DNA of 64,000 bases, from the IMG/VR virus record IMGVR_UViG_3300016476_000292, positions 3,063 to 67,062 of that record. One strand, 5' to 3'. A program made the position numbers and the translations under genes. Source of the DNA: a virus (taxonomy: Duplodnaviria; Caudoviricetes). The notes beneath the pieces were generated by a model. It saw only the letters and a program-made list of their open reading frames with translations, ran no database searches and was not told where the DNA came from. Positions 3,701-57,229 of this stretch are shown piece by piece; position 1 is the stretch's first letter, and every line of letters begins with the position of its first letter.

Positions 3701-6700
3701 AGCGCACCTTGCACTGGAGCTTCATTCGGCCTAACACCAAAGCTGTACTGCTTGGAGATGATCCTGTCTCCAACCGTGTTTACATCCTCGTCAAGGATAG
3801 ACTCCGTAGTCTTGACCAGTTGATCTAACGCGGTCAGGTATGGCTTGGTAACGTTCAGTATCTTGCGGATCAACTCCACAAGCTTATCCATGATGGTCTG
3901 TTCGCCAACCTTAATCTCTGACAGGAACTCCTGCATGTCACGGTCTGCGATCCCCCATGCCACCAGCTCGTCAGGCCCGGTCAAAGGATTGATCTCGCCT
4001 GCGTATACCTTCTCCATGAACGGAGTAAGACGGCCAGCCCGCACCTCTGTGTTGAAGTGTGTAACAACCTTGTTGAACAGGTCGCGCAGTTCTTTCACTA
4101 TTGGATCATCGCCCTTGAGCACGTTGATCTGCCCAACAGTTGCGGCGTGCAGCAGCTCATGAAGTACCGTGATGTACCGAGTGCCAGGCGGGTAGCCCCT
4201 CTGATTGTCAACGACAGCAGCACCATTCAAGGTAATCTTGATGGATGCCATCTTCTGCTCACCACGCTTACCAAAGTCGTACTCGGTCAGCCCGCGAGCA
4301 GCAGACATTTTCAACGGACGGCGGTCACCAGACGTAACCTCAAAGTCCAACTTGATGCCGCGCTTGGCCATGCCATTCAAGCGGTTGGATACTTTCTGGG
4401 CTATAGCCTTGGCAAACTGATTGGGCGCATTATCGACAGCCCACTGTGCCGTTTGCAGCATAGTCCTGCCGGTCAGCTCTTTCTCTATACGAGCGTGTTC
4501 TGGATCTTTGTTGATGACTAATTTGGCCTGCTCGGAAACTTGTTTTGTTTTTGGTGGGTTGCTTTTATCTATAACAACAACCGCTGGAATATTTTGTTTT
4601 CCTAGTGCGTCAAGAGCATCAATCCTATGAGCGCCCTCTAAAATATAGTTGCCATCTCCAGAATAAACAACAATTAAAGGATTTATTTCCCCCGACTGAG
4701 ATATTTGTTCTGCTAGATTTCTAGTCCTTTGATCAAGGGCATCTAAATTTCCAGTTGCCGGCCCTGGCTCACCAAGATCAGATATTGGCACTGATCTAAT
4801 ACCAGGAAGAACCGTGTAATCTTCTAAAGAAGCTTGAATTGAAGAAAGATTTGGAACATCTTTTCTTACCGTAAGTCCATCAACTACTTCGCCGGGCAAA
4901 ACTCTTGGTAAGGATTTTTCAAAATTTTCTTTATTTTGTTCCGCAGCACGACCGCGCCCCTCTTCCTTCAAAAGATCCTGATCAGGAAAATATTCTTCCT
5001 CTACTGGTTCTTCTGGGATAGTTTCGAAAACTCTCGCAGGTGGCTCAACACCTCCAGCCTCTGCTTCGGGGAAAGCTGCTTTAGTATCCTCATAAATTCT
5101 TCCCTGCTCATCGACTGCTTCTTGGACAAGGCTGTTGAATGTTTTTGCATCGACGTACTCCCGGTAGGCGTCTTCTAAGTCGGACAGCTTTACATTGTTT
5201 AGGCGCAACTGTTCTTGTGTGTTGTAGGTAAGATAGTTGCCGGAGCGGAGCATGTCTTTGATATGCTCTTCCGCCGCAAGATCACGGTCTAACGCCGCAG
5301 ACGGATCCATCTGCATTTCCATTTCCACAGAACCCTTGCGGAGTTCTGGCGGCAGCCATGCGTCCAAGTCGCCATCAGCCACAAGATCTGCTATGGCTGC
5401 GCCACGCTTACCCTTAGTGGCACGCAGACTAAAGAACCGCTTCGGCTCGCCTAATTCTGACAATTCTTCTGGAGCAAGACGGCCTTTCACTTTTGACCAA
5501 AGGCTGTCGCCCGGCTGCCCTTTACGCAGCTGCTCTGCTTCCTTTTGGACGGTGGCGATATCTTTTTCTACTTCTTGTATTTCAGGCGGTGCCGGGGGCT
5601 TTTCCTCAGATACATATTCACCTTTCGGCTCGGCCTCTGCGCGAGCGCGAAGAGCGTCAATTTGCTCGGCAGGTGGTAACGTTTCCACGGCCGGAGCAGT
5701 TGGTTGATGGGCAATTGGCGCAGCTACGGCAGCCGTTTCCAGCGGCTTTTCTTCTGCAACAGCAGGCGCTTCAGGTCGGCGCACAGCCTCTTCCGCAGGT
5801 GGTAACGTTTCCACCTGTTGTCTACGTGATAACCCGGCAGCAGTACCAAGACCCATACCACCAACAGCAGCCATACCCATGGTCTCGCCCAGACCTTCTG
5901 TCAGGCTGCGCGATGGATCCACCTGCTGCATGGCAAAGTTCTGGGCTACCTTGCCGCCGCCTTCCTCGATCATCTCGCTGACGGTCTCACCAGCACCGCC
6001 TTTGACTGCACCCATCAAGCGACTGCCCTTGCCTGGAACTTTGGCCATGGCTTCTTCAATCGCACGACCGCCAGGCAGTCTCTGTGCCAGCGCAGATATC
6101 ACCGTTGCCGCAGCACCGGTATAGCGGGCATAACCCAGCGCACGACCAGCAGCCTCTTCCTCCGGCACACCCCTAGACACCATCTCTTTGTACAGCTGCT
6201 CGTACGCCCCAGCGCCGATGTCTGCACCCTGCTGAACCGCACCAGTGCCGATCGCGCCACGCACAGCCCCGACAGTCATGCCGGCAGCAGACAGGCCGCG
6301 AGCTACAGCAAAACCTGGGATGAGATTGGGAACTTGTTCTGCGATGAAGTTGGACAGCAGCGCCGGATCCTTGATGGTCTCCATGAACGCCGTGACGCCA
6401 GCTTTGACCTGACCCTCTTTGCCAGCCTCCGCAATCTTGGCCGCACGCTCTGCCTCGCGACGCTTCAGCTCTTCCGACTTCATGGCCTCGCCGGTTTCAC
6501 GCAGCTCGCGCCCAACCTTGGTCAAACCAGTGTCAGAGAAGTCGCCCGTAGCCAGTCCGTACAGTTGGCCGGGAAGCTGGGCAAGCGCACCCACACCAGA
6601 TACGCCGCCGGCAAGAATATCTTTACCAGCTTCCAGCATCGTGCGTTCTTTGGGCGGCGCAGCAGGAGCCTCTGCCGGCTGGGCAGCCATAGCGGAACGA

Positions 6701-6789
6701 AGAGCATCAGCAAGAGCCTGAGCGGCCTGCTTGTCTCCCGCGTTGTGTGCGTTTAGGAAGGCGCGTTCAAGCTCTTGTACCGTTGCCAT
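688..6789 (-). CDS. Large polyvalent internal-virion (ejection) protein: ParB/Srx-like domain, HExxH metallopeptidase-like motif, LPD38-like C-terminus
   Basis: 2033 aa at the end of the structural operon; INPLIVVYSGDGNYILEGAHRIDAL (ParB/Srx), VLHELLHAAT, and C-terminal LDFSMQG...VPFLNARVQGL...WDRDNFWW...RLPKPFE typical of LPD38. Confidence 0.75.
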   Translation of the reverse strand: MATVQELERAFLNAHNAGDKQAAQALADALRSAMAAQPAEAPAAPPKERTMLEAGKDILAGGVSGVGALAQLPGQLYGLATGDFSDTGLTKVGRELRETGEAMKSEELKRREAERAAKIAEAGKEGQVKAGVTAFMETIKDPALLSNFIAEQVPNLIPGFAVARGLSAAGMTVGAVRGAIGTGAVQQGADIGAGAYEQLYKEMVSRGVPEEEAAGRALGYARYTGAAATVISALAQRLPGGRAIEEAMAKVPGKGSRLMGAVKGGAGETVSEMIEEGGGKVAQNFAMQQVDPSRSLTEGLGETMGMAAVGGMGLGTAAGLSRRQQVETLPPAEEAVRRPEAPAVAEEKPLETAAVAAPIAHQPTAPAVETLPPAEQIDALRARAEAEPKGEYVSEEKPPAPPEIQEVEKDIATVQKEAEQLRKGQPGDSLWSKVKGRLAPEELSELGEPKRFFSLRATKGKRGAAIADLVADGDLDAWLPPELRKGSVEMEMQMDPSAALDRDLAAEEHIKDMLRSGNYLTYNTQEQLRLNNVKLSDLEDAYREYVDAKTFNSLVQEAVDEQGRIYEDTKAAFPEAEAGGVEPPARVFETIPEEPVEEEYFPDQDLLKEEGRGRAAEQNKENFEKSLPRVLPGEVVDGLTVRKDVPNLSSIQASLEDYTVLPGIRSVPISDLGEPGPATGNLDALDQRTRNLAEQISQSGEINPLIVVYSGDGNYILEGAHRIDALDALGKQNIPAVVVIDKSNPPKTKQVSEQAKLVINKDPEHARIEKELTGRTMLQTAQWAVDNAPNQFAKAIAQKVSNRLNGMAKRGIKLDFEVTSGDRRPLKMSAARGLTEYDFGKRGEQKMASIKITLNGAAVVDNQRGYPPGTRYITVLHELLHAATVGQINVLKGDDPIVKELRDLFNKVVTHFNTEVRAGRLTPFMEKVYAGEINPLTGPDELVAWGIADRDMQEFLSEIKVGEQTIMDKLVELIRKILNVTKPYLTALDQLVKTTESILDEDVNTVGDRIISKQYSFGVRPNEAPVQGALFEQAGKPSKVEAVKEKAKKALQKRKLPKSQFEGVSDDLYADLEPVFAPERKTIIDKIDGMRDDFWMKLAQGIADQYRSIKDISQEAYMKARMSKTIDGALEGILFNGEVKLTDGALDIAKDTKGLLKVLEPVGAEVDRYQIWVALQRDAAITEKSNRARDEISAAEQEIKRMGALKTEAGKAFDKESKKILDDDSLSSAKKRDAFKSLRKSLDNYRSDVDKAISSKRVEIGNLKKSIKFPSINPKIVARRDQLSSGKIGDKSRLEVYRQVQKDMNKLNRSVLKVALEQGIIDQQAFETLARDINYIPFYKMLDENSDVQAAATNTGLVNQYFSKALKGGEKPFGDLMENTLRNWSHILSASMKNEAANATIRATMDIGGAFPNLKKAYEWRLDDDGRNGKVYSSKTGEMIGDGSLKPEYTSSEGTGLVKTMIDGKQAYFDIKDPMLLESIMSIGYMGPKSKFIDIAKNFKNMLQFGVTLSPGFKVRNLFRDSWAAMATSNLKLDPFGNVVKGWADSDKNNPAHISALAGGAIFNFGSMYEGDQAKMVKRLIDKGVNPDTILDTPEKVKKALVYFWDKYQEWGNKSEAANRMALYTQLKEKGYSHLEASFYARDLLDFSMQGSWPAFRFLTNVVPFLNARVQGLYKLGRDGIIPTSRVIYNTATGKPIELTDKQKAQQFSIVMVATAMASLALYMAYKDDDEFKKREQWDRDNFWWVKIPGMDEALRLPKPFELGAFGTMAERVAEQIFDKGAEGKVFKDSLSRMFMDTFALNPMPQMFKPLVDLYANKDSFTGAPIETAGMERLSKEQRVAEKTSPLAIALSKVANVFLPESAELSPVQADYSIKGYFGWLGGTASWLSHYAVMPFSKSAYPDNNWTETLSAGFIKSLPATQSKYVTAFYENNKEISQAYADMRHFAQLGQADKVQEILKEKGDKIAMAKFYDNASKDMAKMRQAIQAIRNDENMTGAQKKEEIDRMKVLIGELARQMEEARIEVKKSYAASQ

Positions 6790-14049: not shown

Positions 14050-16185
14050 CTACCTCCGACCATCAGGTCTGATGTCGATTCTGGGTGCTCCCAGTTGCCA
14101 CTGACAACCTAACTGGTTGGAACTAACCTTGAATGCCATCTGCCGACCACGCAGCCTTGTGTACACAATCTGCGTAAATTCCTGTACTTCGTAGTTCCTG
14201 ACGCCGTTATAACTTTGTGCTGACGTAACTGTTGGCGTTTCTGACGATCCGTAAGGCGCACCAGGATTTTGCCGTGGACGCAAAGTAAACGTGACTTGAG
14301 GCTTGTTTGGCATCGGTGTGCTGGATCCGTCAAACGTGATGTCAGGGATCATCCTCCAGACAAATCCGTAGTTATGTCCATCCCCGATGTCAAAGTCAGA
14401 CGACTGGATGTACGCATTAATCGGCAGGACTGTGCCATTGACCTCTACGTCATCATTACCGCTCTCGTGGTACACAATGGTGTTCTGATACGTAGCGCCC
14501 ATTGGGTTTTCCCTTAACGGGCTGTCCAGCCATGCCGTGCGGCCAAGCGTGCCGTAGTACCAAACCTGATCCAGATAGTTGTAGATCACGTAACGGTCGA
14601 TCACATTACTGCCGGCCGAGCAATAGAACCACCAAACCTCGCTGTAGCCTTCGTTCGTGCCTGCAAAGAACTGATCTTGCTGATCCAGATTGATGTCGCC
14701 AAAGACATACTGGCGCAGCGCACATGGTAACGTTTCCACCCTACCGGTGTAGGCGTAAAACTTGTCCACGCCCATCCAGTACGTAATGTTGTTTGCCGTA
14801 GCCACAGCGTTTTGACTGGCAATCGAGATGTTGTCAGACAAGATGTTGAATCCCCAGACAAACGGCGGCCCCAGATACTGCATCGAAAACACAGCGCTGT
14901 CAGTGAATACCAGAATCTCCTGCCTAGTCTGCTGGGCGGTGACGATCGCCGATCCTGACGATAGGCGGAAGCTGCCGGCTTGATTCGTGATAGCCGGAGC
15001 CCAGACCTGATAATCCTCCTGATCTGACCAGCGAATCAGCATCGGATCCTGTGAAGTGCTGCCGTAGTCATTCACGCCGAACGCGATCACAAACCGGCTG
15101 GAGTCAGAAACCATCACAAAGTTACAGACCGACGGGCAGCTTGTGTCTGTCTGATATATCCCAGAGCTGGAGTTGGATAGCAGAGTTGCGGGCGTGTTAA
15201 ACAGCAGATTGCCCGCGCCTGAATACTCAGGAACCCACATGTACAGCGCACCGCCGCGCGGGTTGATAATCAGGTAATCACCGTAGTTGGCTTCTGACCA
15301 TAGGCGCAGCTGCTGCTGGATGCCAGACGCTGCCGACTGTCCCCAGCCAGTAAACGAGTTGGCTTTGTAGACGATTGTGCCATTTGAGTGAGCCGTGGCA
15401 ACAGTTCCATTGGCTCCGCGAACGCCGCCAGAAAATATCGTGGCAGTGTTGCTGGTGTACGTAGCAAGCTCCTGATCTATCAGGATTGTGCCAGTAGCGT
15501 TTGAGAACCCGGTGGTAGAGGCAACCGTGATATTGGTGTTCGATGAATTTAGACCCAACGTCAGGGTAGTCTGGTTTGTACCCAGCACAAAACCACCCCA
15601 GAGACCAGCACCCCAGCCAGCAGCGTAGCCAAACACAGCTTGGCCAACATTGATCTGATACGTAGCCGTAACCGTACCGCCGCCAGTGGCGTCAGCATTG
15701 GCAGCAGATGGCGCAATGATGGTATAGCTGTTCGTGTTGACGTACGTGATCCGAAACTCACCGTTCAAGGTCAAGCCACCCACAGCCGTAGCCCCTGAGA
15801 ACGTCACATAGTCGCCGTCGATCGCACCGTGATCAGCATCCGTCACAGTGACAATCGTAGAACCATTGACAGTGGTGAACGGGTTGGTAAGCGTAGCCGT
15901 AGCCCTGACAGGCGTAATGTCGTTGTATACACCGCCGCTCTCAACGTAATACTTCAGATTGGTGCCAACGCCCAGCAGGTTGTAACCACGCAGTGTCACC
16001 CAGTTCCACAATGTACGAGCTACACCAAGATAGGTATTACTGGAGATTGGCTGCCAGCCACCAAGCTTCTGCGGGTATCCGGAACGAAAACGGATCTTGT
16101 CGCACTCAAACCAACCGCCCTCGTTGGCGAGCGTCGTTCCTTCCCTATTCAAACCTGGACGCAGCTGCAATTTTTGGAGGGGCAC
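14050..16185 (-). CDS. Tail nozzle/stabilisation protein (P22 gp10 / T7 gp12-like)
   Basis: 711 aa beta-propeller-like repeats (IRWSDQED, WGFNILSDN, WMGVDKFY), C-terminal RLRGRQMAF...WQLG.PRIDIRPDGRR. Confidence 0.65.
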   Translation of the reverse strand: MPLQKLQLRPGLNREGTTLANEGGWFECDKIRFRSGYPQKLGGWQPISSNTYLGVARTLWNWVTLRGYNLLGVGTNLKYYVESGGVYNDITPVRATATLTNPFTTVNGSTIVTVTDADHGAIDGDYVTFSGATAVGGLTLNGEFRITYVNTNSYTIIAPSAANADATGGGTVTATYQINVGQAVFGYAAGWGAGLWGGFVLGTNQTTLTLGLNSSNTNITVASTTGFSNATGTILIDQELATYTSNTATIFSGGVRGANGTVATAHSNGTIVYKANSFTGWGQSAASGIQQQLRLWSEANYGDYLIINPRGGALYMWVPEYSGAGNLLFNTPATLLSNSSSGIYQTDTSCPSVCNFVMVSDSSRFVIAFGVNDYGSTSQDPMLIRWSDQEDYQVWAPAITNQAGSFRLSSGSAIVTAQQTRQEILVFTDSAVFSMQYLGPPFVWGFNILSDNISIASQNAVATANNITYWMGVDKFYAYTGRVETLPCALRQYVFGDINLDQQDQFFAGTNEGYSEVWWFYCSAGSNVIDRYVIYNYLDQVWYYGTLGRTAWLDSPLRENPMGATYQNTIVYHESGNDDVEVNGTVLPINAYIQSSDFDIGDGHNYGFVWRMIPDITFDGSSTPMPNKPQVTFTLRPRQNPGAPYGSSETPTVTSAQSYNGVRNYEVQEFTQIVYTRLRGRQMAFKVSSNQLGCQWQLGAPRIDIRPDGRR

Positions 16186-28214: not shown

Positions 28215-28456
28215 CTTTTCAGGGAAGCAGCCTTCCTTGTTGGCCGCCCCTTTTCATCTTTCATCGGGCCTGGCATTCCTGACATGCGCGCGCAGAATGA
28301 CCGCTTGCGTGGCCCACCCTCCGGCTGCGGTGCCTTCAAATTGCTGCCGGTTGCCTTGTTGTACTTAGCTCGTCCCTTGGCCGTCAACCCCGCACCCTTG
28401 GATACCGGGAGTTTCTCTCCACGACCGATCGCAAGGGATGGGGTCTTCTTAGCCAT
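28202..28456 (-). CDS. Small basic conserved phage protein
   Basis: GLTAKGRAKYN..TGSNLKAPQ...RKRSFCARMSG...SLKRWKC. Confidence 0.6.
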   Translation of the reverse strand: MAKKTPSLAIGRGEKLPVSKGAGLTAKGRAKYNKATGSNLKAPQPEGGPRKRSFCARMSGMPGPMKDEKGRPTRKAASLKRWKC

Positions 28457-28718
28457 AGAACACCGTCACAGATGTGTTGACCAGCGTTACCGTCACATTC
28501 GTCGAGAACAGGATGCCATCAGCTGGGATCAGCGCATTAAACGCCTCACCGTTCGCAACCGTCTGAACAGCAAACACGTTCGTGCCGCCGTCAGCGATGG
28601 TAACGTTACCAGCACTCGATGTCGGGGCGATGATCATGCCCTTCACGCGAGTGCGGCCCTCAAATATCACACCGGACGAGCCAAGACTCTTGGCTTTTAC
28701 GTCTGTTTGTTGAGCCAT
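28449..28718 (-). CDS. Small putative capsid-associated protein
   Basis: 89 aa beta-rich, ends VTVFYG. Confidence 0.55.
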   Translation of the reverse strand: MAQQTDVKAKSLGSSGVIFEGRTRVKGMIIAPTSSAGNVTIADGGTNVFAVQTVANGEAFNALIPADGILFSTNVTVTLVNTSVTVFYG

Positions 28719-34289: not shown

Positions 34290-36761
34290 TTAATCCTTCT
34301 TAGGTTTTGACTTCGGTTGTGGACGAAGCATCTCCATGCGATCTTTGGCAATCCTGCTGCCAACCTCGATGCCTTTGATTTCCATCTCCGCATCCAAGCG
34401 GGACTTTTCGGACGCTGCCTTGACGCCTGCTTGTAGGCCGGCAATACGTTCCTGTGCTTCGATCCGGGCTTTCTCGATCTCGATTTGATCTGCTTTTGCC
34501 GCAGCATCCATCGCAATCTTCTGCTTCTTGATCTGCACTTCTTCCGCTTTGAGCTGGAGCTCTTGCTGCTGCATCTGCACCAGCGGGTCTTGAGCCGCCT
34601 GTTGTGCTTGCTGCTGCGCTGCCTCCGCCTGATCTTTCTGCAACAGCTTCGTGGCAGCCATTGCCATCATGCGAGACACCTCGACCTCCATTTCTTCGGG
34701 CAACTGCTTGTCCATATCCGGCAGCGGTACTCCAAGCTGCTTCTCGATCTCGATGCGGTATTGGAAAGCGATGTGCTCGTTGATGTGCGCCATGGCAGCA
34801 GCCATGATCATCTGTGCCTTCGGGTTTTGGCCAACAAGCGCAGCGATCTTCGGATCCTGCATAGCTGCTCTATGGACAGTAATGTGCGCCTCGTGATCCT
34901 GGTAAATGAAAGCCTTCACGGGTTTGCCGTTCAGGATATTCATGTTCTCGGACACTGGGTCTTTCGGCTTCTGATCTTCCGCACTGGGAACCAGCTTGCC
35001 GATATTCTTGATGCCCAATACTTCGAGCATCTGTCGGTTCAGCTCAACCTGATCGTAGATCTGCGGGTTTGCCTGCGCCATCTGCATCACAGCTTGATAC
35101 TGCACCACCTTCTGCGCCATCGTGGCCGAGTTTGGATCGGACACTGGGATGACATCTACATCGTCGTAGTCTGACTTCTTCGCGCGCGGCGTGCCCTCAA
35201 CCGGCATGTAGTCGTACTCATCCGGCGTGTAGTCACGGATGATGTCTTTCAGCAGCTTCAACTCTTGCTTCATCGCGTAGTGGATACGCGCCTGCACTGC
35301 TGACATAACCTTCAGCGTGCGCTCAAGAATTGCCAGCGTTGTGCCAACAGGAGAATTGGCCGACATGTCTGCGATCTTGAGGTCAGCAGCCGCAGCAAAA
35401 CGACGGCCTTCCTCAACGATCTGATTCATCAATCCAAGGAGGACTTGGCTTGGCTCTTTGTACGGGAGAGGGAGGATATTGTCCCGGATTGTTCCAGCCG
35501 CGACGTCCACATCTCGGAACTCGCCGGGAGCAATTGGAGTGTCGTCACCCTTGACTCGCATCCCCTTAGTCTTAAGACCGCCCGGCAGGTTTGATAAAGT
35601 GCCAGCATCAACAAGCTGACGAATAATAGAAGTACCAGACTTAGCAAAAGCACCAATAAGGTGGATAAGACCGAAGGCATAGAAACCAAAGCCTGGAATG
35701 TATGGGTAGTGAACAAAGTGATTCCTCTTTTGGTACGACTCATCTTCTGGCCGCCAGTTTCTTCGAATGGCCAGAATTTCTTTTGATGTCTTCTCGATGG
35801 TAACGATGTACGGCAAGCCAATACCAGTCGGTTCATCGTCATCATCCTTATCTTCATATCCAGGCAGATCCAGATATACCTGCATCTCCAACAGTTTGTA
35901 TCGATCGTCCGTGGTTGCACGAAAACCCATCTTCTCTGCAATCTCTCGCTCAATATCGTCCAGCGAGTTCTCAGGATCCGGCAGATCAATGTCGCGATAG
36001 AAACCGGCAACCATCAGCTTTCTCAACTCATTCTTGGTCTTGCGCATAACATGCGTCACACGCGGCGTAGACTCAAGATTGCTCGCGCCATAAGGAACAA
36101 CTACATCCTCTGCCGGCACAAACACTGACACCTGACGGCCAAGCGCAGGATCGTAGTACACCTTTTTGAACGCATTGCCCGCCAAGCCCAAACCCCACAA
36201 CATGCGCTCATGTTCCGGACGGTATTCAGTCATGACTTCCGTCAGCTGATAGTTCATGTCCTCACGAACCCGCTCGGCAGAGTCGCGTTTCTGCGGAGTT
36301 TCCTTGCCGATGATCTTTGTCTTGACTGGGCCGCCAGCCGGAAACGTTTCCATGATCGTTTCAGCCTGAAACTTCACCAGCGCCTCCGACAGCAGCGGGT
36401 GATACACGCCGCACGCGCCTTCCCATGGCTCCGATCGCTCCTCTATCTTCATGCCAAGCAGCTCAAGGCCGTCAACATAAGTCTTCATCCAGTCCTTGCG
36501 GGAGTCAATGTCGTCCTGAAAGTCGCCCAACAGATCGCCGGCCAAGCTTTGTAGCTCGCCTTCGTCCATCTCCTCGGCCAGATTGGCGTTGAAGTCATCT
36601 TGCTTCTCGCCCATCTCCATGCCGATCTGTAAATCCCCAATCCCGATCGAAACCGCTTCCGGATCCTCGATCTCAATCTCAATCGGCTCCGCATCCATCA
36701 GGTCTTCGTCCATCCCAACAGGAAGTTGGTACAAAGCCTTATCAATATTTGTGGCCATCAT
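34290..36761 (-). CDS. Portal protein
   Basis: 823 aa following TerL; WEGACGVYHPLL.EA.VKFQA...YIPGFGFYAFGLIHLIG; long C-terminal Gln-rich barrel. Confidence 0.85.
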   Translation of the reverse strand: MMATNIDKALYQLPVGMDEDLMDAEPIEIEIEDPEAVSIGIGDLQIGMEMGEKQDDFNANLAEEMDEGELQSLAGDLLGDFQDDIDSRKDWMKTYVDGLELLGMKIEERSEPWEGACGVYHPLLSEALVKFQAETIMETFPAGGPVKTKIIGKETPQKRDSAERVREDMNYQLTEVMTEYRPEHERMLWGLGLAGNAFKKVYYDPALGRQVSVFVPAEDVVVPYGASNLESTPRVTHVMRKTKNELRKLMVAGFYRDIDLPDPENSLDDIEREIAEKMGFRATTDDRYKLLEMQVYLDLPGYEDKDDDDEPTGIGLPYIVTIEKTSKEILAIRRNWRPEDESYQKRNHFVHYPYIPGFGFYAFGLIHLIGAFAKSGTSIIRQLVDAGTLSNLPGGLKTKGMRVKGDDTPIAPGEFRDVDVAAGTIRDNILPLPYKEPSQVLLGLMNQIVEEGRRFAAAADLKIADMSANSPVGTTLAILERTLKVMSAVQARIHYAMKQELKLLKDIIRDYTPDEYDYMPVEGTPRAKKSDYDDVDVIPVSDPNSATMAQKVVQYQAVMQMAQANPQIYDQVELNRQMLEVLGIKNIGKLVPSAEDQKPKDPVSENMNILNGKPVKAFIYQDHEAHITVHRAAMQDPKIAALVGQNPKAQMIMAAAMAHINEHIAFQYRIEIEKQLGVPLPDMDKQLPEEMEVEVSRMMAMAATKLLQKDQAEAAQQQAQQAAQDPLVQMQQQELQLKAEEVQIKKQKIAMDAAAKADQIEIEKARIEAQERIAGLQAGVKAASEKSRLDAEMEIKGIEVGSRIAKDRMEMLRPQPKSKPKKD

Positions 36762-39348: not shown

Positions 39349-39569
39349 CAGTAGGAAGCCTTATCGTCCCACGGCCGGTTGGCCTCTTGTCTCTGTCTTA
39401 CTATCGACATCGCCTCACGCTCGACAGGCTTATCCAGCCGACGCTGTATCTTTGCCAACGTTGGATATATAGACACCGGCCGGAAATACCGCCGCCCAGA
39501 CTTCTGCTCCTTGTACACCTGGTACAAAAGCCCAAAAGCCTCCAGCAATAACTCCTCGTCCCGACTCAT
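39348..39569 (-). CDS. Hypothetical protein
   Basis: 73-aa ORF with overlapping start/stop. Confidence 0.5.
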   Translation of the reverse strand: MSRDEELLLEAFGLLYQVYKEQKSGRRYFRPVSIYPTLAKIQRRLDKPVEREAMSIVRQRQEANRPWDDKASY

Positions 39570-39895
39570 TCCAATGTCCTGAAATTCACATACACAGGCC
39601 GCACCGACCGCCCGCTACCCCTAACCTTCTTCAATACCCCCAACCTCACCAACCTATCAATAATCTCCGCCGTATTCCCCATCCCACCCTTCTTACGTAT
39701 CTCACATATATCCCGTATCGACGGCCCAAACCCGTACTGCTTCCACCACTCATCTATCACCAAAAACACTTCCTTCTGCGCCGGCGTCATATCCAACCCC
39801 ATACACTCTTCATACGTCCTGTCCCGCCTCTTCGCCACCATCTCCCGATTTATCTCAATCGCTCGTGGTAACGTTTCCACGAGTGACTTGCTCAT
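39566..39895 (-). CDS. LexA DNA-binding-domain-like winged-helix protein (no peptidase domain)
   Basis: MTPAQKEVFLVIDEWWKQYGFGPSIRDIC...IIDRLVRLGVLKK...RSV. Confidence 0.7.
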   Translation of the reverse strand: MSKSLVETLPRAIEINREMVAKRRDRTYEECMGLDMTPAQKEVFLVIDEWWKQYGFGPSIRDICEIRKKGGMGNTAEIIDRLVRLGVLKKVRGSGRSVRPVYVNFRTLE

Positions 39896-40647
39896 TTGGT
39901 AACCTCGTCATTTTTCCCAAAAATATCCCCCCGGTGGGTCTGCGTTTCCGAGGACAAGGGGGGGTCTTCGCTGGGATCGGGGTCTGCGTTTCCAGGATCG
40001 GAAAAAGATGGGGAGGGTTCGTGTGGAATAGTATGCTCATGCGAGTCGGAGTCCCATTCTGAATTTGGGGGCGTGCCCTCGGGGTGGGGTTCCTGGCCAG
40101 CCAATTCTTCTAGCAGCGAATCCGCGTCCACTGTTTCCGCATCATCACTGGCCAGCATGAGCGTTTTCAATTGGCCGAGTATCTGCTCGCGTATCGCGCC
40201 AGAGTCCCGAACATGGGTTATTTCCTTGCGCTCGGTGAAAGCTGCTACTTCCGTCACTTGTCCCAGGATTTTGGCAGCCTGTATCTTCGTTGCCATTTTG
40301 ACATCTGGGTCAATGAGTGCGGAGGTGAGCGTAGAAATGGTGAGACTGCGCAAAGCTTCAGCGGTATGCAACGCCGCGACCTGTTTAGCGTGTTCTAGTG
40401 CAACTATTTCCGCCTGGATTCTGTAATCCGCTTTCAGCCTGGACGCTGCATCCCCGACGGTTTTCGGTGTTCCACCTGCTTTATATGCAGCCCTGTATGC
40501 GTCCGCGCCGGACATCTCATCCAGCACCAGAGCTTCCACGAACTTGCGCTGCTTATGTGTAATCGCAGACTTGGGAACTTTCAGGACGGAAGTTATTCCT
40601 TTTTCCTTTATTGCTTCCTTTAGCTGTTTCCTGCTGGGAGGTTTCAT
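39892..40647 (-). CDS. terS: Terminase small subunit
   Basis: ITHKQRKFVEALV...AYRAAY...VGDAASRLK HTH, upstream of terL; ATG 40647. Confidence 0.7.
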   Translation of the reverse strand: MKPPSRKQLKEAIKEKGITSVLKVPKSAITHKQRKFVEALVLDEMSGADAYRAAYKAGGTPKTVGDAASRLKADYRIQAEIVALEHAKQVAALHTAEALRSLTISTLTSALIDPDVKMATKIQAAKILGQVTEVAAFTERKEITHVRDSGAIREQILGQLKTLMLASDDAETVDADSLLEELAGQEPHPEGTPPNSEWDSDSHEHTIPHEPSPSFSDPGNADPDPSEDPPLSSETQTHRGDIFGKNDEVTK

Positions 40648-40785
40648 TTTGTACCGATGCTCGCTCGCGCTCGCTTGCCAGCGACCAGGCAACGCACCCG
40701 ACCGCCCGCGGCTATTGCCCGCAATTTACCCGGAACAGAACCGGTACGTCAACAAAACCTATCAAAACCTAAATTCCGATAGCCA

Positions 40786-43593: not shown

Positions 43594-43722
43594 ATGAAAT
43601 ACCAACGAATCATGCACAAACTTTTTGACATTCCTTGCCGCGAGTGCCGCGAAGTTCGCGTTTTATTCTGGCGCGGGCGTTGCAGCTTTTGCGATGCCGA
43701 CGAAGGCAAAATAATTAAATGA
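43594..43722 (+). CDS. 42-aa CxxC...CxxC protein
   Basis: Own translation MKYQRIMHKLFDIPCRECREVRVLFWRGRCSFCDADEGKIIK; AGGAG RBS. Confidence 0.45.
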   Translation: MKYQRIMHKLFDIPCRECREVRVLFWRGRCSFCDADEGKIIK

Positions 43723-43739
43723 GTCAGGCTTAACAATAA

Positions 43740-43767
43740 TGCAAGGTGGAAACGTTACCACCTTGCA
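43740..43767. promoter_or_regulatory. 28-bp palindrome (one mismatch) centred on GGAAACGTTACC
   Basis: TGCAAGGTGGAAACGTTACCACCTTGCA, intergenic. Confidence 0.7.
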
Positions 43768-44008: not shown

Positions 44009-44824
44009 TTGGGTCAGGCTTTGACTAAAAGCAAACAGCCCGACACGCCGCATGTGGTCGTTTGCATCTTCACCTTCACGATCAGACATCCAGACCGGCC
44101 AGCCTATATCTTCCGCAGCCTGCTGTCCCGTCCCGCTTTTGTCATTGTCAGCGATGACCAGCCCTGGCTCCAGACCAGCGGCCACCTTGACCATATTGCC
44201 AGCGGAAAAGCACACATGAATGTGATATCGCTGCTTCATCTGCTTCATGGCCGCACGAACGGAAAGCGCGGTCGCGTATCCCTCGCAGACGATATTGATT
44301 CCTTTATTGTCAAAGCTGAAGGTTGCACCGGCTGTCCTCTGCCCATACAGAAAACGCTTGTCGCCCTCCGGCCATATCTGTTGCAATCCGACGAGCGACT
44401 TGCCCACGCGCATCGGGATGAGCAGGACAGGCTTGCTCTCGATCATCAGCACGTTGCCGGTTTCGTCGGGAAAACCTTTCCGAACAAGGTACGGGTGAGT
44501 CGCATACCCGGATTCATTGAGCATGGCCACTGCTTTGCCGACAGCCTGGGTCGCCAACCGCTTGCGGGCTTGCTCGGCCTTTGCTTGGCTGATGATGATG
44601 GCCTTCATGTCGGGCACCTGCCCGTTGCTTGAGTCAGGCTTCCACAATGCCGTGACCGTAGACAGCGCGTGATTCTGTACGAATCCATGCGTCCCCATGT
44701 ACTTGACGCTGCCGTTCTTCTTGCGCGGGTGATCTTCTGTCCGGTAACGTTTCCACACACCGACAGGCGGCAACTCATTGATGATGATGCCGTGGCTGCG
44801 GGCAAACTGAATGAAGTCAGACAT
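43967..44824 (-). CDS. Toprim-domain DNA primase
   Basis: HPYLVRKG...LLIPMR...LQQI...KRFLYG...IVCEGYATALS...FSAGNM...IADND..GTG...DAND. Confidence 0.85.
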   Translation of the reverse strand: MSDFIQFARSHGIIINELPPVGVWKRYRTEDHPRKKNGSVKYMGTHGFVQNHALSTVTALWKPDSSNGQVPDMKAIIISQAKAEQARKRLATQAVGKAVAMLNESGYATHPYLVRKGFPDETGNVLMIESKPVLLIPMRVGKSLVGLQQIWPEGDKRFLYGQRTAGATFSFDNKGINIVCEGYATALSVRAAMKQMKQRYHIHVCFSAGNMVKVAAGLEPGLVIADNDKSGTGQQAAEDIGWPVWMSDREGEDANDHMRRVGLFAFSQSLTQSMLNISTGRHYQR

Positions 44825-48199: not shown

Positions 48200-49012
48200 T
48201 TAATTGCCTTCGAGCTTTTTCAACTTCTTCTGCAACATCTGCACTTGCTTCATCAGCTGCGCGTTCTCTGCTTGGAACTGATCACGCGAACTTGTGACGG
48301 CCTTCAATTCTATCTCCAACAAACGAATCTGAGCACGCAAATCCTTAATGATTGACTGGGCTTTTTCCTTCTCAATGTCATCCGTGCTTGCCGCCATTGC
48401 AACTGTTAGCTGATCTTGCAAGTCTTCATTCTCTTCTCGCAACTTCTGTACTGCTGCCGTCATTTCCTCGCGTTCGACTTCTGCCTCGGTAAAAATGGCA
48501 ACAGGATCTTCTTCCTGCTTCGGCTTCTCCTGCCGGGTGGTAATTTTTCCACCTTGCTTGAACGTAGTTTCTGTTTTCTCTGCGCCCATCTCTTTGCGTA
48601 TGGCTGCCACGAATGGATGGCTGACACAGCACTGGCGGGCGATCTCACGATCAGACCAGTCTTGCCATTCAATATCTGACAACATAGCCATGACTGCTTT
48701 GCGCTTGTCTGCTGGCGTGCGACGCAGGCCGTGGTCAGCGTTGGCTCCGAAGCTGTACAGAATTGCATCCCGCAACGTGCCTTCGCGTACATCACACTTG
48801 ATACCAGGGCTGCCGGCTTTCTTGGCAGCGAAGTATCTGTGGAAACCATCGGCCAGAAAATACTCTGCGCCGTCGTGGAATACGATGATGGCCGGGAACT
48901 TCGCACCATCCCGCATGTTGTCTGCATACTCAGCGACCACATCCTGATCGATCTTCGCGCGGCTCTGTGTACCGCCGTCAATTTTTATTTTGTCAAGACT
49001 CAGATTCATCAT
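48200..49012 (-). CDS. ParB/Srx-domain protein with HTH and C-terminal coiled coil
   Basis: TQSRAKID...FPAIIVF...LADGFHRYFAA; WSDREIARQCCVSHPFVAAIRK. Confidence 0.8.
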   Translation of the reverse strand: MMNLSLDKIKIDGGTQSRAKIDQDVVAEYADNMRDGAKFPAIIVFHDGAEYFLADGFHRYFAAKKAGSPGIKCDVREGTLRDAILYSFGANADHGLRRTPADKRKAVMAMLSDIEWQDWSDREIARQCCVSHPFVAAIRKEMGAEKTETTFKQGGKITTRQEKPKQEEDPVAIFTEAEVEREEMTAAVQKLREENEDLQDQLTVAMAASTDDIEKEKAQSIIKDLRAQIRLLEIELKAVTSSRDQFQAENAQLMKQVQMLQKKLKKLEGN

Positions 49013-52422: not shown

Positions 52423-52953
52423 CTACGATCTCCAGTCCGACTGATCCCAGTTGCCTTTGCCGTGGTTGCATTCATGGCACAGGATCTGAAGGTTAGACAG
52501 CTCCAGCGCCAGTTCTGGGAATAGCTTGCGCGGTTTGATGTGATCCACATTCATGACCGCCCCAGTGGCCGGCGTAGCACCGCAGCACATGCACTTCGGC
52601 CCGTACTTCTTCAAAGCTTCCATGCGTACCTTGCGCCATTCGTAGGTGCTGAGAAAAGAATCTCCTGCCACAAATGCCAGCGTTTTGGGATTGCTCTGCT
52701 TTTTCTTTGGCTTAGGTTTTGGTGGGGGTTGATAAGGCTTTGAGTCCACATGCAGTCGCGCCTCCGCTGCTATGTGTTCTATATTTTTTTCCACCCACGC
52801 TTTTGGTTTGTAGCTTCCTGGTTTTGGATAGCCATCCATGGCCAAGACCTTGCAACCCAAGTCATACGGACTTACGCCATTCTTTGCGCCGTATCCCAGC
52901 TTGCGCTTGATGTACCGAGACAGCATTGCCATCCCAATTTTTGCCGCTCCCAT
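52423..52953 (-). CDS. HNH endonuclease
   Basis: KCMCCG...MNVDHIKPRKLFPELALELSNLQILCHECNHGK. Confidence 0.85.
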   Translation of the reverse strand: MGAAKIGMAMLSRYIKRKLGYGAKNGVSPYDLGCKVLAMDGYPKPGSYKPKAWVEKNIEHIAAEARLHVDSKPYQPPPKPKPKKKQSNPKTLAFVAGDSFLSTYEWRKVRMEALKKYGPKCMCCGATPATGAVMNVDHIKPRKLFPELALELSNLQILCHECNHGKGNWDQSDWRS

Positions 52954-53480: not shown

Positions 53481-53485
53481 GCGCA

Positions 53486-53514: not shown

Positions 53515-53698
53515 GAGGCTGTTGGTGGCCGGTGCTGAACTCCGGCTTTACTTGTGCAATCCTAGTAGGCAGGTCGCATCGCCCGCATTTGCACTCGCTG
53601 CAAGGCGCATCAGCCTGCGCATTCACCAACACGGCTGGACACTCGCCTCTCTCTCGTGGCCGTGGTGCAGTCGGCCGTCAGCAAATGCCCATGCGTCT

Positions 53699-53783
53699 TG
53701 GTGGAGGCGGCTGGATTTGCACCAACTCACCCGAAGGAACGGATTTACAGTCCGCCGCGACTCGCTGTCTTCGCCGCGCCTCC
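53699..53783 (-). tRNA. tRNA-Tyr (GTA), long variable arm, encoded CCA, several non-canonical positions
   Basis: Acceptor GGAGGCG/CGCCTCC-A-CCA; anticodon arm GCGGA-CTGTAAA-TCCGT; T arm GTTGG-TGCAAAT-CCAGC. Confidence 0.85.
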
Positions 53784-53980
53784 AACACAGGTAAGTATAC
53801 AGGAACAATCAGTGGCAAAAAAGACCCCGGCACGGAGACCGGGGAAAGTCGCTGGCTCGCCTCAAAAGCCAGTGGTGAGATTCTGTGGGGGTACACCCAG
53901 TCCGAGGAGATTCACGGAAGGAGAGTGATAGCCAGGCTTTCCCCCGCACAAACAGTATCACCCCTACCACCCAGGCGCAA

Positions 53981-53998
53981 GGTGGAAACGTTTCCACC
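53981..53998. promoter_or_regulatory. Perfect 18-bp palindrome GGTGGAAACGTTTCCACC
   Basis: Intergenic between divergent operons, about 50 bp upstream of a consensus promoter. Confidence 0.7.
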
Positions 53999-54044
53999 TC
54001 CGTTGCTGTCCATGCAACACATGGTTCCTGTTATGAATTACCTG

Positions 54045-54073
54045 TTGACAGGTGCTAGATCTAGGACTAGTAT
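54045..54073 (+). promoter_or_regulatory. sigma70-type promoter of the rightward operon
   Basis: TTGACA-17 bp-TAGTAT. Confidence 0.7.
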
Positions 54074-54098
54074 TGTTCCTACATCTAGGGAGGGTGAC

Positions 54099-54281
54099 AT
54101 GACTCAGGCAATTACAGACGACGTAATCGTGGCTGTTCGCATAGCCAGCTTTTATCCGTTGAGCGACAGCGCAAGACAAGAAATGGCGAAGTTTATTTCT
54201 CAAGCCATGGTTGATCTTGGCCATCAGCGTAACTTCATAGTTCATAGCACCAGCGTAGAAACCAAGCCGAGGAAAACATGA
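54099..54281 (+). CDS. Hypothetical protein
   Basis: GGAGG RBS, ATG 54099, 60 aa. Confidence 0.55.
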   Translation: MTQAITDDVIVAVRIASFYPLSDSARQEMAKFISQAMVDLGHQRNFIVHSTSVETKPRKT

Positions 54282-54454: not shown

Positions 54455-54687
54455 AGCCAACACAAGAGCAAGTCACAGAATGGTCAAATGAGGCGGGTTT
54501 GTATGCCAGTAGACAGACTGACGATAAGTTTGATTGGAAGATTATTTACGCGCAGCAGTTCGCCACCCTCGCCTATGCACAGGGTCGCAAGGATGAGAAT
54601 GAGGCGTGTATTAGAGACTGTGACAGTGTGGACTTAGTTGGGGCTGATGATTGTATAGCTGCTATTCGCGCAAGGAGGGAACAATGA
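54451..54687 (+). CDS. Hypothetical protein (ENEACI motif)
   Basis: GGAGG RBS, 78 aa. Confidence 0.55.
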   Translation: MKPTQEQVTEWSNEAGLYASRQTDDKFDWKIIYAQQFATLAYAQGRKDENEACIRDCDSVDLVGADDCIAAIRARREQ

Positions 54688-55040: not shown

Positions 55041-55899
55041 ATTCAACCTGCCTGACACTTTTATCAACGTCATACAGCGGCCTACATACAGCCGTGGCGA
55101 CAGTGAGATTAGCGTCACAGAAATCCTGTCTCCGCCCCAGTTGGTGCAGCTACGCCGCCGGCACGCTGAGGATATCGAGGAAGATGCCGCCGACCGCGTG
55201 TGGTCTCTGTTCGGCAGCGCCTGTCACAACATCCTCCAGCACGGCAAGGATGAGAACCACGTCGTCGAGGAGCGATTGTTCACGACTTTCCAAGGATGGT
55301 CTATCTCCGGCGCTATCGACCTTCAGGAATACCAGCCCGATGGCACGGTGGTGATCAGCGACTACAAGGTCACATCGGCATGGGCAGTACAGCAGGAGAA
55401 GACCGAGTGGATAGACCAGCTCAACATGTACGCATGGCTGGCAGAAACCACGAAGTCCGTGACTGTTTCTGGCCTGAAGATCGTGGCTATCGTGCGGGAC
55501 TGGAGCCGCAGAGAAGCGGCTGTCAAAGAAGGCTATCCGCAGGCACCTATCGTGGTGCTGGATATCCCGATGTGGGATCACGACACCCGTGAGTTCTACG
55601 TCAGCGCCAGGCTGAACCTACACAACGAAGCGAACTTTGCAGCGGTCAGCGGCAAGATGCCGGAGTGCACGCCGGATGAAATGTGGGAGAAGCCCACGAC
55701 CTACGCTGTCATGAAGGAAGGCGGCAAGCGGGCGAAGAAAGTATTCACCATCAAGCAGGAGGCCGAAGCGTTCCTGGCCGAACAGAAAGGAGCGCACTTC
55801 ATTGAGACCAGAGAGGGCGGCAGGACTAGATGCGAGAGCTTCTGTTCCGTGGCTCCGTTCTGTGAGCAGTGGAAAAACTACCGCAAGGAGGAAGTATGA
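55024..55899 (+). CDS. PD-(D/E)XK exonuclease (Cas4/RecB-like) of the recombination module
   Basis: FGSACH...ISGAIDL...ISDYKVT...QLNMY; C-terminal RCESFCSVAPFCEQW. Confidence 0.8.
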   Translation: MRLTNKFNLPDTFINVIQRPTYSRGDSEISVTEILSPPQLVQLRRRHAEDIEEDAADRVWSLFGSACHNILQHGKDENHVVEERLFTTFQGWSISGAIDLQEYQPDGTVVISDYKVTSAWAVQQEKTEWIDQLNMYAWLAETTKSVTVSGLKIVAIVRDWSRREAAVKEGYPQAPIVVLDIPMWDHDTREFYVSARLNLHNEANFAAVSGKMPECTPDEMWEKPTTYAVMKEGGKRAKKVFTIKQEAEAFLAEQKGAHFIETREGGRTRCESFCSVAPFCEQWKNYRKEEV

Positions 55900-56042
55900 A
55901 ATACCTAATCGCTATCTGGGCAATCTCCGCAGCATCGCTGGCCTACGCAAGCTGCACCTATCACACGTACACGCAGAACGGCCGCATGATTACATGTACT
56001 ACGTGCTGCTACGGCAATCAGTGTTCGACCAACTGCTACTGA
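55896..56042 (+). CDS. 48-aa signal-peptide-bearing Cys-rich peptide
   Basis: Own translation MKYLIAIWAISAASLAYA-SCTYHTYTQNGRMITCTTCCYGNQCSTNCY; AGGAGG RBS. Confidence 0.6.
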   Translation: MKYLIAIWAISAASLAYASCTYHTYTQNGRMITCTTCCYGNQCSTNCY

Positions 56043-56049
56043 GGCAGCC

Positions 56050-56232
56050 ATGAAGATCAACGTCGAGATTGTTGACGCCACCCCGGAGCAGCTTGTTGTC
56101 TTGGCTAGAGCGCTTGGTGCAAAGATGCGCAAGAGCTACAGCAACAAGTCCGATGATGCGCCGTACGGCAAGAAGAGGGACGGCACTCCACGCAAGAAAC
56201 CTGGGCGGCCTGCCTACAAGTTTGAACTATAA
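56050..56232 (+). CDS. Small basic protein with AT-hook-like KKPGRP
   Basis: YGKKRDGTPRKKPGRP. Confidence 0.5.
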   Translation: MKINVEIVDATPEQLVVLARALGAKMRKSYSNKSDDAPYGKKRDGTPRKKPGRPAYKFEL

Positions 56233-56241
56233 GGAGAAACA

Positions 56242-56940
56242 ATGAAAGAAATCGCTTCAGCACTGGTGAAAGCGCAGAAGGAGTTCGGCCCTGCGCTGAA
56301 GACCTCTACCAACCCACACTTCCGTAGCAAGTACGCTGACCTGTCAGCCTGCGTCGAAGCAGTCATCGATGCCCTGAACAATAACGGAATCTACCTGATG
56401 CAGCTAACCGACGAGCATGATGGTGGTGTAAAAGTTTCCACCATCTTCATTCATGAGTCTGGCGAGCAGATATCAGGTGGATCCCTTTACATGCCGGCAG
56501 CCAAGCATGACCCGCAGGGATTCGCTAGTGCTCTGTCTTACGCCCGCAGGTACAGCCTGATGGCAGCCTGCTCTATTGCCCCGGAGGATGATGATGGAAA
56601 CGCAGCAACAGCGTCTGCGCCGCCGAAAGCGGCTCCTAAAGCTACGCCGGCAGCGCCGCCGAAACCTACCGCTGCGGCTCCTAAAAAGGTGGAGGGAAAA
56701 GCTGGAGAGTGGAATCTTAAGGTCTCATCAGAACCTGACACGAACTTCGAGGATTGGCTCGCGGTGGTGGTTGAGCTTACGGTTACAGCATTGGATGCTG
56801 CGGCGAGCAAAGATGATGTCATGAACATCTGGCGCACGAATGCCAACATCTACAAGATCATTGAGCAGCAGGCTTCTGATGCCTACGCAGAGCTGACAGG
56901 AACTTTCAAGACTTACAAGGAGAGCTTTGATGGCAACTAA
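56242..56940 (+). CDS. erf: ERF-family single-strand annealing protein
   Basis: ALVKAQ...NPHFRSKYADL...DPQGFASALSYARRYSLMAACSIAPEDDDG. Confidence 0.9.
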   Translation: MKEIASALVKAQKEFGPALKTSTNPHFRSKYADLSACVEAVIDALNNNGIYLMQLTDEHDGGVKVSTIFIHESGEQISGGSLYMPAAKHDPQGFASALSYARRYSLMAACSIAPEDDDGNAATASAPPKAAPKATPAAPPKPTAAAPKKVEGKAGEWNLKVSSEPDTNFEDWLAVVVELTVTALDAAASKDDVMNIWRTNANIYKIIEQQASDAYAELTGTFKTYKESFDGN

Positions 56941-57229
56941 GTTTCCAAATTCTGGGCGCTTGAATTATAGCCAGCGCAAGGTACACCCGAAGTCACCAGA
57001 TCTATACGGTGAGCTGGTGCTGGAGCGTCAGTATCTTAAAGATTTGCTGGAGGCTACGGATGCTGACGATATCCCCATCAAGCTCGACGGCTGGCAGAAC
57101 GATGGCCAGTACGGTACGTACTTCAGCCTGAAGGTGAACACTTGGAAGAAGCCAGATGGAAACGTTACCACCCCGCCGGCCAGACCGTCGCAAGTAGTGG
57201 ACGACGGCGATGACCCGATTCCGTTCTAG
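56930..57229 (+). CDS. SSB-like OB-fold protein with acidic DDPIPF tail
   Basis: PDLYGEL...KLDGW...YFSLKV; C-terminal DDGDDPIPF. Confidence 0.6.

Follow-up and report, generated by a model that had tools for sequence, protein, structure and literature searches.

A dispersed palindrome in a podophage-like environmental genome, probably read by the phage's own ParB-like protein

Why should a phage genome carry one and the same palindrome ten times over, nearly always inside genes, and which protein reads it? The question is posed by a 64,000-nucleotide stretch of DNA (hereafter, the window), bases 3063-67062 of the 67,062-bp IMG/VR record IMGVR_UViG_3300016476_000292, a tailed, podophage-like freshwater virus rated 100% complete. 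A preliminary description of this DNA had taken the repeated palindrome for a genome-wide protein-binding site, with a ParB-type helix-turn-helix (HTH) protein, a winged-helix protein or a host factor as its candidate binders. That core inference holds in the analysis reported here, and comparison with related phages narrows the choice of binder to the ParB-like protein.

The exact sequence GGWAACGTTWCC occurs at each of the ten positions previously given for it (5675, 5801, 14726, 28599, 36340, 39867, 43748, 44743, 53984 and 57158), and the full 67,062-bp record likewise holds exactly 10 exact copies. The arithmetic behind the earlier expectation of 0.015 copies at uniform base composition is correct, and no match was obtained across 100 dinucleotide-preserving shuffles of the window. 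The enrichment also survives a codon-aware null model, the comparison singled out beforehand as able to overturn it: synonymous-codon shuffles (n=1000), which keep all protein sequences and the codon usage of each gene, gave a mean of 1.22 copies and a maximum of 4 against the 10 observed, the mean including one intergenic copy that stays unshuffled. When up to two mismatches to GGWAACGTTWCC were allowed, 25 matches were found against 4.9 expected. Extended by its flanks, the consensus reads approximately (G)GTGGWAACGTTWCCAC(C), a palindrome of 14 to 16 bp whose 14-mer core, TGGWAACGTTWCCA, is nearly invariant among relatives.

Nine of the ten copies lie in genes, and the three reading frames reported for them were verified: six copies share one phase and encode V/M-E-T-L/F-P, two encode G-N-V-T, and one encodes W-K-R-Y. 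As the peptides vary and the proteins harboring them are unrelated, it is the DNA motif that imposes the peptides and not the reverse. Both chance and a common protein motif are ruled out as the origin of the array, by the codon-preserving shuffles together with the three reading frames; the enrichment is real, and selection acts at the DNA level. In addition, the W positions of the two half-sites are non-complementary in 7/10 copies of the window and in 23/37 copies of genomes G000, G001 and G004. Such independent variation of the half-sites fits a dimer on duplex DNA and speaks against a hairpin.

The sites, together with the two phage proteins considered as their binders, are the following:

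Site 1, 5675..5686, GGTAACGTTTCC, in the gene of a 2033-aa virion-RNA-polymerase-like protein, residue 368, PAVETLPPA
Site 2, 5801..5812, GGTAACGTTTCC inside the 20-bp AGGTGGTAACGTTTCCACCT, same 2033-aa gene, residue 326, QQVETLPPA
Site 3, 14726..14737, in a 711-aa virion structural gene, GRVETLPCA
Site 4, 28599..28610, GGTAACGTTACC, in the small gene 28449-28718 (minus strand), SAGNVTIAD
Site 5, 36340..36351, GGAAACGTTTCC, in the portal gene, residue 137, TIMETFPAG
Site 6, 39867..39878, CTCGTGGTAACGTTTCCACGAG, at the junction of terS and the winged-helix gene
Site 7, 43740..43767 with core 43748-43759, the 28-bp palindrome TGCAAGGTGGAAACGTTACCACCTTGCA, the sole clearly intergenic copy
Site 8, 44743..44754, in the Toprim/primase gene, residue 24, GVWKRYRTE
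Site 9, 53984..53995, AAGGTGGAAACGTTTCCACCT, in the gene 53532-54281 (plus strand), RKVETFPPP
Site 10, 57158..57169, GGAAACGTTACC, in the gene 56927-57229 (plus strand), PDGNVTTPP
Decayed eleventh copy, 48539..48550, GGTAATTTTTCC with 2 mismatches, peptide GGKIT, inside the ParB-like gene
ParB-like HTH protein, the proposed binder, 48200..49012, minus strand, 270 aa
LexA-type winged-helix protein, 39566..39895, minus strand, between terS and terL, flanked by sites, with a LexA_DNA_bind match

Two of the copies had been described as intergenic and as extending into palindromes of 28 and 18 bp. The 28-bp palindrome at 43748 stands; the copy at 39867 forms a palindrome of about 20 to 22 bp, not 18, and is not clearly intergenic, lying 17 nt inside the long form of the winged-helix open reading frame (ORF). 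Nor could the placement of these copies near promoters be upheld: our consensus scan gives no sigma-70-like site at either of them, and its sigma-70 and terminator matches were no more frequent than in shuffled sequence. On the minus strand, the same scan classed the palindrome at 43748 as resembling a terminator. Directly upstream of the 28-bp palindrome we noted a previously unlisted 42-aa ORF (43595-43723, plus strand) with two CxxC pairs, which appears zinc-ribbon-like. Site 6 is the most widely conserved location of all and carries, in each genome examined, that genome's own class of palindrome. The corresponding region of the 2033-aa gene holds two to three clustered sites in relatives; in the window phage and relatives alike, these copies stand about 75 to 130 bp apart in a repeated PxVETLPP region.

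Related phages, to which the preliminary description had pointed as a further comparison, carry between 2 and 23 copies: 14 in G001, 13 in G004, 8 in G003, 23 in both G006 and G008, 21 in G010, and 2 to 5 in the other whole genomes. A scan of IMG/VR for GTGGWAACGTTWCCAC returned at least 118 loci, 95 of these 118 sharing proteins with the window; within IMG/VR the 16-mer is almost lineage-specific, and the motif marks the lineage. Several homologous locations recur, namely the flanks of the winged-helix gene between terS and terL, where the sites are often paired at 48 or 70 bp, the portal gene at about residue 140, the primase gene at about residue 26, a cluster within the 2033-aa gene, and the inside of the ParB-like gene. 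The majority of sites are found within genes, with intergenic DNA holding modestly more than its share and no association seen with gene ends. The richest relatives have a site every 2.6-2.8 kb, evenly spread. Indeed, spacing is more even than random in G010 (coefficient of variation [CV] 0.55, P = 0.002) and in G006 (CV 0.66, P = 0.027), and in neither genome does a gap between sites exceed 6.4 kb; in the window genome spacing is not significantly even (CV 0.74, P = 0.30). An origin of the coding copies by insertion of a mobile mini-element was considered and rejected, since the peptides VETLP, METFP and WKRY are conserved in homologues that have no site, and the sites thus arose via codon choice.

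Which protein reads the palindrome is best approached through three genomes, G003 (69% GC), G006 and G010, which carry 8, 23 and 21 copies and belong to phages very different from that of the window. The proteins they share with the window are a helicase, an ERF annealing protein and the ParB-like protein, besides which only weak TerL and HNH matches were seen. The ParB-like protein is the only DNA-binding protein common to the window and these distant site-rich phages; a profile of the winged-helix family built from 65 sequences found nothing in G003, G006 or G010 at E<=10. More broadly, the ParB-like family is encoded in 10/11 motif-bearing whole genomes, the exception having 2 sites, and in 8 of these 10 genomes a site lies in or adjoins the ParB-like gene, in different frames, as GGNVS(T) just past the HTH or as VETFP. 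At the place of the window's decayed copy, relatives have an intact site encoding GGNVS(T). The same tendency was observed in a motif-blind sample, chosen by ParB-like homology, in which 9/48 sites fall within the gene against 2.4 expected (P = 6e-4). Bacterial loci of the family hold 4 sites in 1.25 Mb, 2 of them in or at the ParB-like gene; these two, from Aquamicrobium and from a Xanthobacteraceae metagenome-assembled genome, have the same 24-bp extended palindrome. We consider it quite probable, from these comparisons, that the palindromes are the cognate, parS-like docking sites of the ParB-like protein encoded at 48200-49012.

A third independent line of evidence, besides co-occurrence and the sites at the protein's own gene, comes from relatives that encode the ParB-like protein and carry palindromes of other classes. 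G012, which lacks the present motif, has GGCAACGTTGCC in ten exact copies; G015 has its own palindrome, T[GC]CAACGTTG[GC]A; and G013 has TGGAA-N4-TTCCA ten times, with the outer half-sites kept and the centre free, so that the central AACGTT is not essential for every family member. Further palindromes in ParB-like relatives without this motif are GACAACGTTGTC, GCAAACGTTTGC, GTAAATATTTAC and GTTAAATTTAAC. The specificity variants found comprise GGW (site form GTGGAAACGTTTCCAC), GGC (site form TGGCAACGTTGCCA), GAC, TGC, GTAAAT, GTTAAA and TGGAA-N4.

The clearest evidence for apparent covariation between protein and site is the comparison of orthologous codons. At residue 78 of the gene 56927-57229, the window has GGAAACGTTACC (GNVT) and G012 has GGCAACGTTGCC, of its own class (GNVA). 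The conserved peptides VETLP, METFP and WKRY/F spell the exact GGW site in GGW-class genomes only, and G013 writes VETLP as TGGAAACTCTTCCA, consistent with its own class. Individual sites tell the same: the site 3 peptide is written with different codons in relatives of other classes; the portal position of site 5 has kept its site in 12 motif-bearing relatives, and in none of the other-class genomes with the same or a similar peptide; and the site at the codon position of site 8 is conserved in GGW-class relatives only.

On the protein side, residues H132 and P133 rank 2nd and 3rd among 203 variable columns for association with site class after entropy correction, a normalisation made because raw mutual information between columns and class is dominated by high-entropy linker columns. 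In the AlphaFold model, both residues open the second helix of the HTH (132-141), usually the one that serves for recognition. Threonine at position 133 is found in 5/5 GGC loci and in 2/20 GGW loci, and a partial Mantel test of site class on the HTH, given the N-terminal domain, yielded r = 0.27 (P = 0.012), the reverse test being not significant.

In the AlphaFold2 model of the ParB-like protein (predicted local distance difference test [pLDDT] 85), a ParB/Srx-type N-terminal domain (1-112) is followed by HTH helices at 121-128 and 132-141, a beta-hairpin (148-161) and a coiled coil of about 95 residues (176-269). The protein matches PHROG 1033, 'ParB-like partition protein', with an E value of 8e-25. 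Searched against the PDB, the family profile finds the CTP-binding N-terminal domain of Myxococcus xanthus ParB (7o0n, E 6e-6) and also Spo0J (1vz0) and sulfiredoxin (6ky4), the homology of the N-terminal domain extending to 7bnk as well. The best Foldseek matches are ParB, Noc and KorB, with a probability of 1.00 over about 145 residues and alignments that reach through the HTH to residue ~145-150; the root-mean-square deviation is 4.1 A for Noc and 3.5 A over 149 columns for KorB (8qa9). The family is a remote branch of ParB/KorB/Noc. Its C-terminal coiled coil is unlike the canonical ParB C-terminal fold and is predicted to form a homodimer, with an interface score (ipSAE) of 0.50 as compared to 0.00 for the best control, contact agreement of at least 84% between runs and a partner pLDDT of at least 69. 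In our benchmark, this mark was reached by 20/30 solved homodimers and 1/23 monomers; coiled coils are common among solved structures, so the score indicates likeness and is not proof.

Other members of the family differ at their ends. In G006 (L203-L205) and G010 (L206-L208), the C-terminus of the ParB-like protein is a CxxC...CxxC segment that looks like a zinc ribbon, with no coiled coil, and G006 has a second over-represented half-site, [AC]GCAAC (7 + 5 counts). Outside phages, the Planctomycetes chromosome CP087563.1 carries at least 7 copies of a DGFHR-type N-terminal domain with an HTH (L312, L315, L323, L325, L329, L359, L380), pointing to a mobile element or gene family that proliferates there.

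Several observations weigh against our assignment. Of the site inside the ParB-like gene, the window retains no more than the decayed copy GGTAATTTTTCC, and some relatives that encode the protein, such as G011 and G014, have few sites. Pfam ParB_N (PF02195) does not match the window protein at E<=0.01 and matches just 3/54 family members, with a best E value of 5e-5. The motifs of the nucleotide (CTP) pocket deviate in part: Q16 and R18 of box I (QxR), G56, R59 and N91 are invariant in the family, but box II, GERRxR in canonical proteins, reads D55-G56-F57-H58-R59, in which the G and the last R are kept, and the E-N of box III reads A90-N91, with Ala in place of the catalytic Glu. CTP-gated clamping may thus not apply; nucleotide binding seems plausible from these residues, and canonical CTP hydrolysis doubtful. 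The covariation of helix and class is correlational, with shared ancestry partly controlled, and a one-residue code (P/V133 for W, T133 for C) proved inexact: L220 and L239 combine T133 with GGW sites, and L230 combines SHPFV with GGC-type sites, so that no single residue accounts for the class. Finally, sites close to gene starts are barely in excess, 30/89 standing no more than 100 bp away where 22.9 would be expected (P = 0.056); so marginal an association counts against simple operators and indicates no other function.

How might the protein work on such an array? A dimer held together by the coiled coil would present two recognition helices that read the two half-sites independently, which would account for the non-complementary W positions. 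Through codon choice, selection on the DNA would have placed the sites within genes, most often as V-E-T-L/F-P, and distributed them over the genome. If KorB, Noc and ParB are a guide, dimers may load at the sites, perhaps as nucleotide-gated clamps, and then spread (PMC11790492), and loading and spreading would mark or coat the phage chromosome. The coding location of the sites, their weak association with gene starts and their even spacing in the richest genomes fit coverage of the whole chromosome better than classical operators. The purposes this could serve include long-range silencing or timing, condensation or protection, and coupling to packaging, at which the conserved site adjoining terS and terL hints; silencing, coating with condensation, and packaging are each at best a tentative possibility. 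Classical ParA-driven segregation is unlikely because no ParA was found and the protein lacks a ParA-binding motif. Specifically, the genome has no match to the CbiA/ParA family in a search that matched 14/14 control genomes, and the motif (L/F/I)G(K/R)G(L/F/I) occurs in 0/54 family members within the first 60 residues. A fuller picture, which we regard as somewhat doubtful, would be that an orphan, ParA-less ParB-type protein spreads from gene-embedded sites and coats the whole replicating chromosome of a phage without found lysogeny genes, as a virus-wide self-marking for global timing or silencing, for condensing the DNA ahead of headful packaging, or for protecting it against nucleases of the host. 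The specificity of the protein would be reset again and again as the helix and all sites change in concert.

If the ParB-like protein is not the binder, the LexA-type winged-helix protein, one of the candidates of the preliminary description, comes to mind, with the sites as its operators and its own gene under autoregulation. In its favor, the protein has a winged-helix domain with a LexA_DNA_bind match, one or two sites flank its gene in dozens of relatives, often at the 48- or 70-bp spacing mentioned above, and the palindrome there changes with lineage, each genome having its own class beside the gene. We nevertheless disfavor it as binder, because the family goes undetected at E<=10 in the three site-rich genomes G003, G006 and G010 and because its helix does not follow the site class: G000 and G014 have nearly identical helices and different classes, whereas G000 and G004 share a class and differ in the helix. 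The terS/winged-helix/terL junction is therefore a conserved location of the array and not evidence for the binder. Most sites, moreover, are far from the gene and inside coding sequence, and we judge the winged-helix protein quite unlikely as the reader. A host protein would be still harder to reconcile with the data. The likeness to LacI-family operators noted earlier amounts to a common central AAACGTTT, which we take to resemble the operator cores of that family; it lends no support to a LacI/GalR-type regulator as the mechanism, and no LacI-family match was seen among the proteins scanned, which covered part of the ORFs. Whether such a regulator or a nucleoid protein of the host is considered, an identical motif is kept in phages of 49-69% GC, with presumably different hosts, closely related phages switch the palindrome along with the phage-encoded helix, and half of the few sites in bacterial ParB-like loci stand at the ParB-like gene, all of which makes a host binder very unlikely.

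Another possibility is that the ParB-like protein recognizes the sites and acts there enzymatically or as a targeting subunit, either by nicking or cutting at the motif, as a 'ParB-like nuclease' domain might, to start recombination-dependent replication together with the ERF protein and the helicase, or by directing a DNA-modifying enzyme. The helicase, the ParB-like protein and the ERF protein are the only gene set co-conserved in all distant site-rich phages, and in G006 and G010 their genes stand side by side; the window genome has a glycosyltransferase cluster; and the ParB/Srx fold supports varied nucleotide-dependent chemistry (PMC12704722). ParB activators are known to direct phage thymine dioxygenases, but these lack a DNA-binding domain (PMC13229309), unlike the HTH-bearing protein described here. 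No Tet/JBP match was found among neighboring genes, a genome-wide search having matched neither this genome nor its own controls, and cutting of both strands at ten palindromes would fragment the phage. We hold an enzymatic role to be unlikely. The palindromes could finally act as nucleic-acid hairpins, that is, as terminators, RNA processing sites or N4-style hairpin promoters for the virion-RNA-polymerase-like protein, for which one may cite the terminator-like copy at 43748 and the weak virion-RNA-polymerase match of the 2033-aa protein. What is conserved, however, is the sequence and not the pairing, as the W positions reveal; 9/10 copies lie inside genes and have no T-tracts; and lineage variants shift both arms to a new fixed sequence instead of showing free compensatory change. 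A hairpin function is thus extremely unlikely, and docking of the ParB-like protein remains the reading we prefer.

As to the phage itself, the gene models are ORF calls made in this analysis. Besides the genes named so far, they include the following:

2033-aa protein, 688-6789, minus strand, weakly matching the PHROG of N4-type virion RNA polymerase at residues 95-443
Portal, 34290-36761
Large terminase, 36768-39140, minus strand, 790 aa
Small-terminase-like protein, 39892-40692

The 2033-aa protein also strongly matches an uncharacterised PHROG of 2118 residues. A capsid protein and a DNA-ejection protein are encoded too, as is a replication and recombination module of Toprim primase, helicase, ParB-like protein, ERF annealing protein and PD-(D/E)XK exonuclease. 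No tyrosine integrase was found in the genome, and no repressor was identified in Pfam and PHROG scans. The large terminase (36768-39140, minus strand) carries an intein, which divides its ATPase from its nuclease part and is marked by Pfam Intein_splicing at residues 230-519 and a Hint module; terL matches are longer still in some relatives (L175, L193, L194). An HNH endonuclease gene (52423-52953, minus strand), with weak homologues in G006 and G010, sits where leftward and rightward gene blocks diverge.

A DegT/DnrJ/EryC1 aminotransferase gene is split over the record ends, with profile positions 3-164 at the 3' end (63304-63999, plus strand) and 178-359 at the 5' end (L219:18-659, within record bases 1-3062); the genome is therefore circular or circularly permuted, despite its label 'linear'. 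This gene belongs to a sugar-metabolism cluster (58943-63999, plus strand, plus L219:656-2391) with 3-4 glycosyltransferases (GT2 and GT10 fucosyltransferase-like) and a split thiamine-pyrophosphate enzyme. The largest site-free arc, 15.6 kb, covers the sugar-biosynthesis and glycosyltransferase cluster and the record junction; the cluster could be a recent acquisition. Among public runs, the best match is a freshwater metagenome, and the contigs of four partly matching runs, compared at 85% likeness, represent several related phages mixed together. A 10-kb query yielded no megablast match among cultured phages, and the nearest cultured phages by protein, all of them distant, are the Pelagibacter phages HTVC027P and HTVC023P and Planktothrix phages.

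The closest known system is KorB with its 12 OB operators on the IncP plasmid RK2 (PMC11790492). Like the phage protein, KorB is a ParB-family protein with an N-terminal domain, an HTH and C-terminal dimerisation; like the phage sites, OB is a 13-16-bp palindrome that recurs about 12 times on a replicon of about 60 kb, at promoters, at a distance from them and inside genes. KorB works with ParA (IncC) and KorA on a plasmid (PMC11790492), whereas the phage has no ParA that we could find, no ParA-binding motif and no identified KorA-like partner. It further differs from KorB in having DGFHR for GERR, a long coiled coil for its presumed dimerisation, and mostly coding sites in a phage without found lysogeny genes.

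Other ParB relatives are similar in part. Noc, a chromosomal protein with a membrane-binding N-terminal helix, takes part in selecting the division site, and its binding site (NBS) is a 14-bp palindrome. As with Noc and NBS in Bacillus (7nfu, 7ol9), a top structural match, we are dealing with an orphan ParB paralogue without ParA and a dispersed palindrome; unlike Noc, the phage protein gives no sign of membrane binding. In Bacillus subtilis, a parS site lies inside the parB/spo0J gene itself. Chromosomal ParB/Spo0J-parS systems resemble the present one in their 16-bp palindrome and in the homology of the N-terminal domain (7o0n, 7bnk, 1vz0), but parS clusters near the origin and works with ParA and SMC, whereas here the half-site is another and the spread is genome-wide. 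Traits of a ParB-type cognate site that are present here are the 13-16-bp palindrome, a copy in or near the gene of the binder, and helix covariation.

The closest precedent among phages is offered by the Cluster O mycobacteriophages, which carry more than 30 invariant copies of a 17-bp dyad repeat, TGTTCGGNNNCCGAACA, and have neither an integrase nor parAB (PMC4351075). Many of these repeats overlap or adjoin ORFs, and the majority stand away from promoters, from which the authors deduced that a dimeric DNA-binding protein recognizes them for some purpose besides transcription initiation (PMC4351075). These phages encode a protein with a ParB-like domain; no binder is put forward in the paper, and its dismissal of this protein concerns a partition role only (PMC4351075). 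Motif, host and phage type all differ from ours. The stoperators of the mycobacteriophages L5 and Bxb1, many dispersed copies of one repressor site, lack symmetry, follow the direction of transcription and are recognized by a temperate phage's immunity repressor (PMC4351075), unlike the palindromic sites described here, in a genome where no repressor or integrase was found. A survey notes orphan ParB-fold proteins in phages and assigns them no DNA targets (PMC12704722).

In our search of the literature, no account emerged of parS-like arrays that span the genome of such a phage and serve a ParB lacking a ParA. ParB-fold proteins are common in phages and unexplained. Dispersed invariant palindromes in non-temperate phages have likewise been a puzzle since at least the Cluster O paper (PMC4351075), and our finding would tie the two together in a large environmental phage lineage. 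With it come one definite protein and its proposed 16-bp site, specificity variants found in nature and the candidate specificity residues H132 and P133, so that the question can be put to simple binding assays. Beyond its relation to KorB, Noc and the Cluster O repeats, the array would offer a natural system for concerted specificity change, in which a DNA-binding protein appears to have changed together with tens of dispersed sites, many of them in genes.

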